From Patescibacteria group bacterium (lineage in GTDB: Bacteria; Patescibacteriota; Patescibacteriia; PEXW01), in contig JBGSPR010000011.1 in NCBI GenBank assembly GCA_041738495.1, forward strand, positions 1,495-65,494: a stretch of 64,000 nucleotides of DNA. The letters run 5' to 3'. Position 1 is the first letter of the stretch. Each line of letters begins with the position of its first letter. Below the pieces are notes generated by a model. The model was not told the DNA's origin and made no database searches. It was given only the letters and a program-made list of their open reading frames with translations. Positions 18,479-20,182 of the stretch are shown piece by piece. Position numbers and translations under genes: made by a program.

Positions 18479-20182
18479 ATGACCCTCCGCCGTCGGGTTT
18501 GGATTACCTTCGGACTCACCGTGCTGCTCACCCTCGGAGCGGCGTACGTTGCCCTACCATCCCACCCATCGCTACCAGGTTTCCTGGGTAAGCAGTTTGA
18601 CCTACGACTAGGGCTGGACTTGCAGGGTGGTTCAGCGCTCGTGTACGAGGCGGACACGAGTCAAATTCCTACGGAAGATCACGCACAAGCCATTGAGAGC
18701 GCGCGCGACGTCATTGAGCGTCGGGTGAATGCATTTGGCGTGTCCGAACCCGTTGTGCAAACGAGCCGCGTTGGTGACCGGTGGCGGGTTATTGTGGAGC
18801 TTGCGGGTGTGAAAGATATCTCGCAGGCCATTACCCTCATAGGTGATACGCCCATTCTCGAGTTCCACGAACCTGGAGAACCCACACCACTCACGGAAGA
18901 AGAGAAGGCCGATGTGAACGCGCAGAACGAGGAAATCCGCAAGCAGGCAGAAGATGTCCTGAACCAGGTGAAGGCGAAGCCAGAATCATTCGTTGATCTC
19001 GCAAACGAGTACACTGACGATCCGAGTAACCTCGATGCTACAACGAACACCGCGCGCGGTGGCGATTTAGGTTTTGCCAAGAAGGGTACGTTCGTCGAGG
19101 AGTTTGAGAACACTCTCTTCAACACGTTGAAAGATGGGGAAGTCTCTCAGACCCTTACGAAGACTACTTTTGGCTACCACATCATTAAGCGTGAAGAATC
19201 GCGCACCCAGAATGTGAATGGCACAGACACGCAGGAGGTTCGCGGTCGCCACATTCTGTTCCAAACCGTGAGCGCAGAGCCCACTGCTGGCGCGTACACG
19301 CCCACTGGGCTATCTGGGAAGCAGCTCAAGCGTGCTGCAGTCACGTTTAACCAGTCAACTGGCGAGCCCGAAGTATCGCTCACCTTCAATGACGAAGGGT
19401 CTACGCTCTTTGCGGAAATTACCAAGCGGAACATTGGGAAGAACGTTGCAATTTTTCTAGACGGCGAGGTGATTAGTAACCCGGTTGTAAACCAGGAAAT
19501 CACCGGTGGCCAAGCAGTGATTAGTGGGGGATTCAGCCTCGCTGACGCAAAAGAACTTACGAAGCGACTCAACGCTGGCGCACTACCGGTGCCAATTTCC
19601 CTCGTGAACCAGCAGACCGTGGGCGCATCCCTTGGGTCGGCATCGATAGAACGGAGCTTGTTCGCCGGGCTGCTGGGCATTCTCGTGGTGGCAGTATTCA
19701 TGGTTGTGTTCTACCGCTTGCCAGGCCTCCTCGCGGCAATTGCGTTGGGCGCGTACACCCTCATTGTCTTGGCGATCTTCAAGCTCTGGCCGGTAACGCT
19801 CACGCTCGCTGGAATCGCTGGCTTCATACTCTCCATTGGCATTGCCTTAGATGCCAACATCCTCATCTTCGAACGAACCAAGGAGGAACTGCGGAATGGC
19901 CGTCCGCTCGATGCAGCGATTGAGGAGGGCTTCAAACGCGCGTGGCTTTCGATTCGCGATTCCAACGTCGCGAGCATCATCACCTCCCTCATCCTCATTT
20001 GGTTTGGATCGAGCCTCATCAAAGGATTTGCCATTACCCTCCTCATTGGTATCGTCGTGAGCCTCTTCTCCGCGATAACAGTTACGCGCACGCTCCTTCG
20101 GCTCGTCACAGGAGCAGGATTCGCGCGCCATCCGAAGTTATTCGGAAACGTTGCCGAACGTTCACCTCACATAGAACGCTAG
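18479..20182 (+). CDS. secD: Protein translocase subunit SecD with a parvulin-type PPIase-like domain occupying the P1-head position
   Basis: N-terminal TM, conserved VIVELAGV and ILEFH SecD P1-base motifs, then residues about 140-240 reading [32 protein letters not shown]...FGYHIIK (parvulin signature), then a canonical SecD C-terminal 6-TM bundle. Confidence 0.85.
   Translation: [567 protein letters not shown]
18896..19198 (+). other. Parvulin (PpiC/SurA/PrsA-like rotamase) domain segment embedded within SecD
   Basis: GGDLG...FGYHII motif pair diagnostic of parvulins; a downstream RHILF motif at about residues 257-261 suggests permutation or a second partial repeat. Confidence 0.65.

Follow-up and report, generated by a model that had tools for sequence, protein, structure and literature searches.

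We report that the SecD protein encoded in a 64,000-nucleotide stretch of a Patescibacteria group bacterium contig (JBGSPR010000011.1 of assembly GCA_041738495.1, positions 1,495 to 65,494 of the forward strand; the whole stretch is called the window below) carries a circularly permuted parvulin domain, inserted in the connector between the base and the head of its periplasmic P1 region. The P1-head and the aspartate of the proton relay are retained, the active-site residues of the parvulin are conserved, the architecture is kept across the lineage, and the same module is reused in stand-alone proteins. We consider it probable that this SecD, with its PrsA-type permuted parvulin in the base-to-head connector, provides a foldase or holdase in cis where chains leave the translocon; catalytic activity, substrates and coupling to head movement are properties that we infer for the inserted domain.

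The open reading frame (ORF) in question is predicted from its sequence to encode a bona fide, functional SecD, the subunit of the proton-driven export motor that partners SecF. It starts with an ATG at 18479, preceded by a GGGGG Shine-Dalgarno-like run, and stops with TAG at 20180-20182. Its translation scores 392.4 bits against the NCBIfam model TIGR01129 (secD; cut-off 244.4), and a Foldseek search with the model of the protein retrieved the SecDF structures 5yhf, 5xan and 3aqp at E values of 1e-22 to 1e-25. The motifs on which the original prediction had based the SecD assignment were all located (RVIVELAGV at residues 103-111, PILEFHE at 125-131, a conserved block at 324-337 and NAGALPVP at 365-372), and together with the TIGR01129 score they bear that assignment out. 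The Pfam match to Sec_GG is weak (16.5 bits against a cut-off of 20.3); G45, L46, D47, G50 and G51 of the LGLDLQGG motif are invariant in the 97 homologs, 56-81% identical to the window SecD, that served as our conservation set. D458 (19850-19852) of the C-terminal transmembrane (TM) bundle is likewise invariant in this set and aligns with D340 of Thermus thermophilus SecDF, the essential TM4 aspartate of the SecDF proton path (PMC5974789). The bundle itself had been expected to contain six TM segments, an expectation that failed, as SecD has one N-terminal and five C-terminal segments.

Within this single ORF, the Pfam scan identified a parvulin core in the P1 region, at residues 145-240 with Rotamase_3 (E = 9.3e-18; 65.3 bits, cut-off 22.5) and at residues 145-239 with Rotamase (E = 1.5e-17; 64.8 bits, cut-off 21.7). 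Both scores are about three times the Pfam gathering scores and far past chance, the signature elements lie at 194-198 (GGDLG), 231-236 (FGYHII) and 257-261 (RHILF), and the three-dimensional fold of the insert is that of a parvulin. The proposal of a parvulin signature at about residues 140-240, forming a covalent part of the SecD P1 region, was thus confirmed. The same proposal had the parvulin standing in place of the P1-head, and this part was rejected: the canonical head is present at residues 276-371 (PF22599, E = 2.7e-31), colinear with residues 157-258 of T. thermophilus SecDF. A phmmer comparison with the latter protein (3AQP) pairs residues 38-147 of the window SecD with 29-131 and residues 275-552 with 157-434, leaving ~127 residues (148-274) in the place of a connector of ~25 residues (132-156). 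On these alignments the parvulin is an extra domain of ~140 amino acids (aa), residues 133-272, in the base-to-head connector, between the last strand of the P1-base (127-132) and the head.

The AlphaFold 2 model of the whole protein, with a mean predicted local distance difference test score (pLDDT) of 86.8 and a predicted template modelling score (pTM) of 0.58, gives the order TM1, base strands up to 127-132, a linker, the insert, a second linker (263-272), head strands from residue 273 and the TM bundle. The elements of the insert (helices 140-166, 168-178 and 207-216; strands 196-201, 232-246 and 249-262) are modelled at a pLDDT of 92-97, and the insert modelled alone reached a mean pLDDT of 92.0 and a pTM of 0.79. 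The Pfam scan gave no match to a SurA_N-type domain in the window SecD, and a search with a family hidden Markov model, run over every ORF of 50 aa or more in the six frames, found no second parvulin gene in the 64-kb window.

The insert is a circular permutant of the parvulin family, with the order α1-α2-α3-β2-α4-β3-β4-β1, in which β1 comes last. In canonical parvulins the N terminus at β1 and the C terminus at β4 are adjacent, and through these two ends the domain is set into PrsA, SurA and PpiD; in the window SecD a loop connects them and the ends lie instead at the β1/α1 junction, which is a classic permutation. The Rotamase match starts at position 10 of the 97 positions of the profile, and β1, the strand with the first catalytic histidine, is therefore missing from the N-terminal side. 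RGRHILFQ comes after GYHIIK, with a 15-residue loop between them, so that the insert departs from the canonical order with an N-terminal β1. When residues ~245-262 were put before the helices, the match covered profile positions 1-96 of 97 and the score rose from 68.9 to ~77 bits, and phmmer aligned RGRHILFQ of this de-permuted sequence with β1 (KASHILIK) of Staphylococcus aureus PrsA. In both AlphaFold models, that of the whole protein and that of the insert alone, strands 232-246 (β4) and 249-262 (β1') form a hairpin with a pLDDT above 90. The original prediction had seen in RHILF a sign of either a permutation or a second partial repeat. The permutation is upheld by the de-permuted match, the PrsA alignment and the modelled hairpin; the second repeat was rejected, because there is one GGDLG...GYHII core and the RHILF strand is the missing β1 that completes it. 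From the permuted order of elements it follows that the chain enters and leaves the domain through the β1/α1 junction, and that a pair of short linkers holds the domain at the mobile head's hinge. Standard domain models miss the permutation, as the match truncates at profile position ~10, and Foldseek nearly misses the permuted parvulin; the SecD parvulin is a helpful example both for annotation and for research on circular permutation.

The active-site pair of histidines and the aspartate of the parvulin family are found in the insert as H258, H234 and D181, at the positions known from PrsA and Pin1. D181 aligns with D154 of Bacillus subtilis PrsA, the counterpart of C113 of Pin1 (PMC2678132), and H234 and H258 would lie next to each other in space. 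Among the 97 homologs, G195, D196, L197, G232 and H234 are conserved without exception, H258 and D181 in 96, F209 and G194 in 95, and V206 in 92. The PrsA domains are the nearest solved sequence relatives of the insert. This pattern of conservation fits a maintained active site.

The architecture is not confined to one contig. All of the best 120 database matches (57-100% identity, from many independent samples) carry PF21760, PF00639/PF13616, PF22599 and PF02355, and the named sources among them are Patescibacteria or Candidatus Kerfeldbacteria. The identical SecD, set in the same gene order (secA, a YkuD L,D-transpeptidase gene, secD, secF and a sigma70_r4/HARE-HTH gene), is present in three assembly records (contigs of 67 kb at NCBI, 33 kb at ENA and 5 kb in Logan), and the base composition shows no break. 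An assembly chimera was rejected on these three grounds, and the expectations that SecD orthologs of related genomes would carry the insert and that the gene is not a mis-join both held. In a scan of species-representative genomes we found close relatives (L001-L004) and more distant single-unit versions at 42-46% identity (L005-L008), with Candidatus Moranbacteria among the latter. In Peribacteria/Peregrinibacteria (L010, L011 and L013) and in two further metagenome-assembled genomes (L014 and L024), SecDF is a fused protein of ~1030-1090 aa with a larger insert of two parvulin-like units at the same hinge; the first unit has neither GGDLG nor GYHII. Between the usual TM3 and TM4 of SecD, these fused proteins contain a further ~45 hydrophobic residues that might form two additional TM segments. 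Among the 150 best representatives of the insert at 50% identity, 26 are in a SecD context, two-unit forms (P0129, P0177 and P0229) included, and the databases already hold thousands of SecD-parvulin sequences, labelled merely 'SecD'. Two single-unit SecD-parvulins from the same set of 26 (P0173 and P0242) have a β4-β1' loop that is longer by 40-60 aa of low-complexity sequence rich in Glu, Asn, Gly and Val; the tip of the hairpin is therefore a tolerant, exposed site.

Several other relatives were noted in these searches. P0133 (396 aa) consists of a TM segment, Sec_GG, SecD_1st, two parvulin units and a Pro/Thr-rich tail, and has neither P1-head nor TM bundle; this protein is to be read as a truncated gene call or else as a further derived family. 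Three SecDs of Patescibacteria type (L001, L007 and P0035) are labelled 'uncultured Gammaproteobacteria bacterium' or 'Bacteroidales bacterium', which are probably mislabels or the result of binning contamination. Archaeal loci also matched the parvulin part, with ~42% identity over ~87 residues on Candidatus Heimdallarchaeum chromosomes (L016 and L019) and 59% identity over 37 residues in a Woesearchaeota locus (L028).

The same permuted module also exists outside SecD, as 32 non-SecD representatives have the permuted signature, with an HIL strand downstream of the core and none upstream. Five of these (P0206, P0224, P0231, P0240 and P0244) are membrane-anchored PrsA/PpiD-like proteins of ~290-350 aa that are 47-50% identical to the insert, and in P0231 (L031:592-1608) a SurA_N_3 domain followed by the permuted parvulin was confirmed. 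The gene of P0231 is flanked by one DivIC-like and one DPBB_1 (RlpA-like) gene. The few named relatives of the stand-alone proteins belong to Patescibacteria, Margulisiibacteriota and unclassified bacteria. Another three proteins (P0162, P0182 and P0213; 351-375 aa) combine the permuted parvulin with a P1-head and lack the TM bundle; in P0162 and P0182 the N-terminal signal includes a lipobox-like cysteine, and the sequence before the parvulin resembles a P1-base by eye, a resemblance that Pfam does not detect. It thus seems that the parvulin-plus-head unit is sufficient as a module by itself. In L035 the gene of P0162 (2963-4066) directly follows those of a SecD-parvulin fusion (232-1980) and SecF (1994-2902), and proteins of this type look like free-standing duplicates of the SecD periplasmic module.

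SecDF is believed to capture the preprotein, as it emerges, inside the P1-head's cavity and to shift it by proton-driven swings of the head (PMC5974789). PpiD contacts SecD at the latter's periplasmic domain and works with SecD/F late in translocation (PMC9643414), and in Mycoplasma pneumoniae the PrsA-like Mdp proteins form a dome over a SecDF-containing translocon (bioRxiv 10.1101/2025.04.25.650208, 10.1101/2024.09.05.611430). In the reading that we favour, the P1-head of the window SecD would keep its preprotein-binding role beside the inserted parvulin, and the parvulin, tethered by its two linkers at the hinge, would isomerise or hold the chains that leave SecYEG and are handled by the head. 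Patescibacteria would then have built into SecD a chaperone partner that elsewhere is a separate entity beside SecDF, namely the membrane-tethered PrsA, PpiD-YfgM or the Mycoplasma Mdp dome. A more far-reaching version is that the P1 region and the permuted parvulin together form an autonomous translocon-exit foldase, in which the P1-head stands in for the SurA-like NC domain of PrsA, SurA and PpiD, and the proton-driven head swing is coupled mechanically to prolyl isomerisation or holding; this version is tentative, and we regard it as possible though doubtful.

Four points weigh against a role as cis-acting foldase. Parvulin domains that have an intact fold and yet are inactive exist, as in PpiD and SurA P1. 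The two-unit variants hold one degenerate unit (for example, the first unit of L010, which lacks GGDLG and GYHII), and catalysis is therefore not always maintained. Stand-alone PrsA-like proteins occur in Patescibacteria too, so the SecD fusion may not be the sole foldase in the cell. Finally, the orientation of the parvulin relative to the P1-head is unreliable in the AlphaFold 2 model because of the pTM of 0.58 and the weaker linkers (pLDDT ~75-80).

The degenerate units in relatives would also suit a non-catalytic insert, that is, a holdase or extra substrate surface that enlarges the capture area of the P1-head in the manner of the PpiD parvulin or SurA P1. However, the His-Asp-His set and the residues of the hydrophobic pocket are nearly invariant in the window SecD and its 96 closest relatives, a degree of conservation that exceeds what maintenance of the fold needs, and the closest solved sequence relatives are active PrsA domains; we therefore consider this explanation rather unlikely. 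It is less probable still that the insert is a docking or regulatory element that binds SecYEG, YidC or cell-wall enzymes, or gates the movement of the P1-head, and does not act on secretory substrates. Such a role would agree with the location of the insert exactly in the base-to-head connector, whose flexibility is needed for SecDF function (PMC5974789), and with the L,D-transpeptidase encoded by the neighbouring gene. No docking-specific feature was found, however, PrsA/PpiD-like chaperones that have SurA_N domains make use of this module as well, and the 40-60 aa expansions tolerated by the β4-β1' loop in P0173 and P0242 argue against a tight mechanical role. As the contig is of metagenomic origin, an artefact was considered as well, whether from chimeric assembly, from a pseudogene with a frameshift or from mistaking a divergent canonical P1-head for a parvulin, but the architecture shared by all 120 best homologs and the identical gene in three assembly records make this scarcely credible.

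The coordinates of secD, its domains and related loci are given in Table 1. Between secA and secD, positions 17061-18440 (+) encode a 459-aa protein in which FG-GAP repeats occur together with a signal or TM segment and, at the C terminus, a YkuD L,D-transpeptidase domain (E = 6.9e-21); this combination is unusual, and the gene order around this gene is kept in other assemblies of the same organism. Downstream of secF, a 383-aa protein (21147-22298, +) has a sigma-70 region 4 near its N terminus and a HARE-HTH domain, and is followed by a 511-aa protein (22307-23842, +) that has a TM segment at its N terminus and matches no Pfam family at E <=0.1. Neither tRNA genes (ARAGORN) nor Rfam families at the gathering score were found across the 64-kb window.

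Table 1. Positions of secD, its parts and related genes (window coordinates unless a locus is named; residues are those of the window SecD)
Feature	Residues	Coordinates	Strand	Basis or remark
secD ORF with inserted parvulin domain, 567 aa		18479..20182	+	ORF call, Pfam, TIGR01129, Foldseek
TM1	3-25	18485..18553	+	AlphaFold 2 helix 3-25
Sec_GG motif region, LGLDLQGG	42-61	18602..18661	+	Pfam E = 0.006, under cut-off
P1-base, N-terminal part (SecD_1st), ending in strand ILEFHE	73-132	18695..18874	+	Pfam E = 7.6e-17; AlphaFold 2 strand 127-132; aligns with T. thermophilus SecDF 29-131
Inserted permuted parvulin domain with two linkers	133-272	18875..19294	+	Pfam, AlphaFold 2, de-permutation test, comparison with T. 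thermophilus SecDF
Parvulin core: α1-α3, β2 (GGDLGF), α4, β3, β4 (GYHIIK)	145-240	18911..19198	+	Pfam
Active-site aspartate	D181	19019-19021	+	In parvulin core
Active-site histidine	H234	19178-19180	+	In parvulin core
Permuted strand β1', with H258 (19250-19252)	249-262	19223..19264	+	AlphaFold 2; de-permutation; PrsA alignment
Canonical P1-head	276-371	19304..19591	+	PF22599; colinear with T. thermophilus SecDF
C-terminal RND-type TM bundle, TM2-TM6 (SecD_SecF_C)	374-542	19598..20104	+	Pfam E = 3.2e-14; phmmer alignment with T. thermophilus SecDF
secF, 297 aa		20185..21078	+	TIGR00966, 286.9 bits, cut-off 160; ATG 2 nt past the secD stop
secA, two genes upstream of secD, Sec gene cluster		14286..16994	+	Translation; Pfam SecA domains
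Two-unit fused SecDF loci		L010:5191-8397; L013:5203-8292; L014:5155-8427; L024:5173-8379; L011:1146-2765

Neither a SecD-parvulin fusion nor a circularly permuted parvulin was described in the literature searched, which lay mostly outside subscription journals and gives absence of evidence only; to this extent the architecture is undescribed, as the original prediction had supposed. Both domains are already known, as are translocon-associated parvulin chaperones. The question that the fusion addresses is how SecDF cooperates with extracytoplasmic chaperones. In E. coli and Vibrio, SecD is touched by PpiD, which aids translocation at a late stage. A covalent fusion conserved across a large part of Patescibacteria argues that both activities share substrate and place, and it provides a compact single-chain system for studying the coupling of SecDF to a chaperone; the TM-less parvulin-plus-head paralog suggests that the periplasmic module can work alone. 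If the reading as an autonomous translocon-exit foldase is true, the fusion would serve as Rosetta-stone evidence for parvulin chaperones and SecDF working on one and the same emerging chain, and no natural circular permutant of the parvulin fold would have been described before this insert. Patescibacteria have small genomes and no outer membrane, and for them the fusion points to an economical folding of secreted proteins.

A possible origin of the permuted unit is indicated by comparison with SurA. The junction between the P1 and P2 domains of Escherichia coli SurA (GFHILKV, 14 aa, VHARHILLK) is colinear with that of the window SecD (GYHIIKRE, 15 aa, VRGRHILFQ), and the equivalent segment of P0231 aligns with the SurA junction too. 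In SurA, however, the β1 strand belongs to the second domain, whereas the window SecD has one core, onto which the strand is folded back in the AlphaFold 2 model. This colinearity suggests that the permuted unit came from a tandem array, in which it lost its own β1 and used that of the next unit. The sequences would accordingly be compatible with an origin by duplication followed by truncation, the usual route to permutation, and SecDs with two units may represent either intermediates on this route or duplications that arose secondarily.

Compared with SecDF of T. thermophilus and Deinococcus radiodurans (3AQP, 5YHF, 5XAN/5XAP), the window SecD is alike in the colinear arrangement of TM1, the putative Sec_GG region, P1-base, P1-head, the RND bundle of five TM segments and its TM4 aspartate, and in having secF adjacent; it differs in its parvulin-folded connector and in that secD and secF are separate genes. 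In PrsA of B. subtilis and S. aureus (1ZK6, 4WO7, 2JZV), which is a lipoprotein, β1 comes first and the parvulin sits within a SurA-like NC chaperone domain, whereas in the window SecD β1 comes last, the host scaffold is the P1 domain of SecD and SurA_N was not detected. In its predicted way of working, the window SecD resembles the PrsA, SurA and PpiD chaperones, yet it is not a member of this group, as its host domain is not SurA-like. PpiD-YfgM of E. coli and Vibrio is associated with SecYEG non-covalently and the PpiD parvulin is inactive, whereas the link in the window SecD is covalent and the active-site residues are conserved. The Mdp/Mpn444 dome of M. pneumoniae is alike in placing PrsA-like parvulins on SecDF outside a cell that has no outer membrane (bioRxiv 10.1101/2025.04.25.650208, 10.1101/2024.09.05.611430), but it is built of separate large lipoproteins, whereas the window SecD has one small domain within itself.

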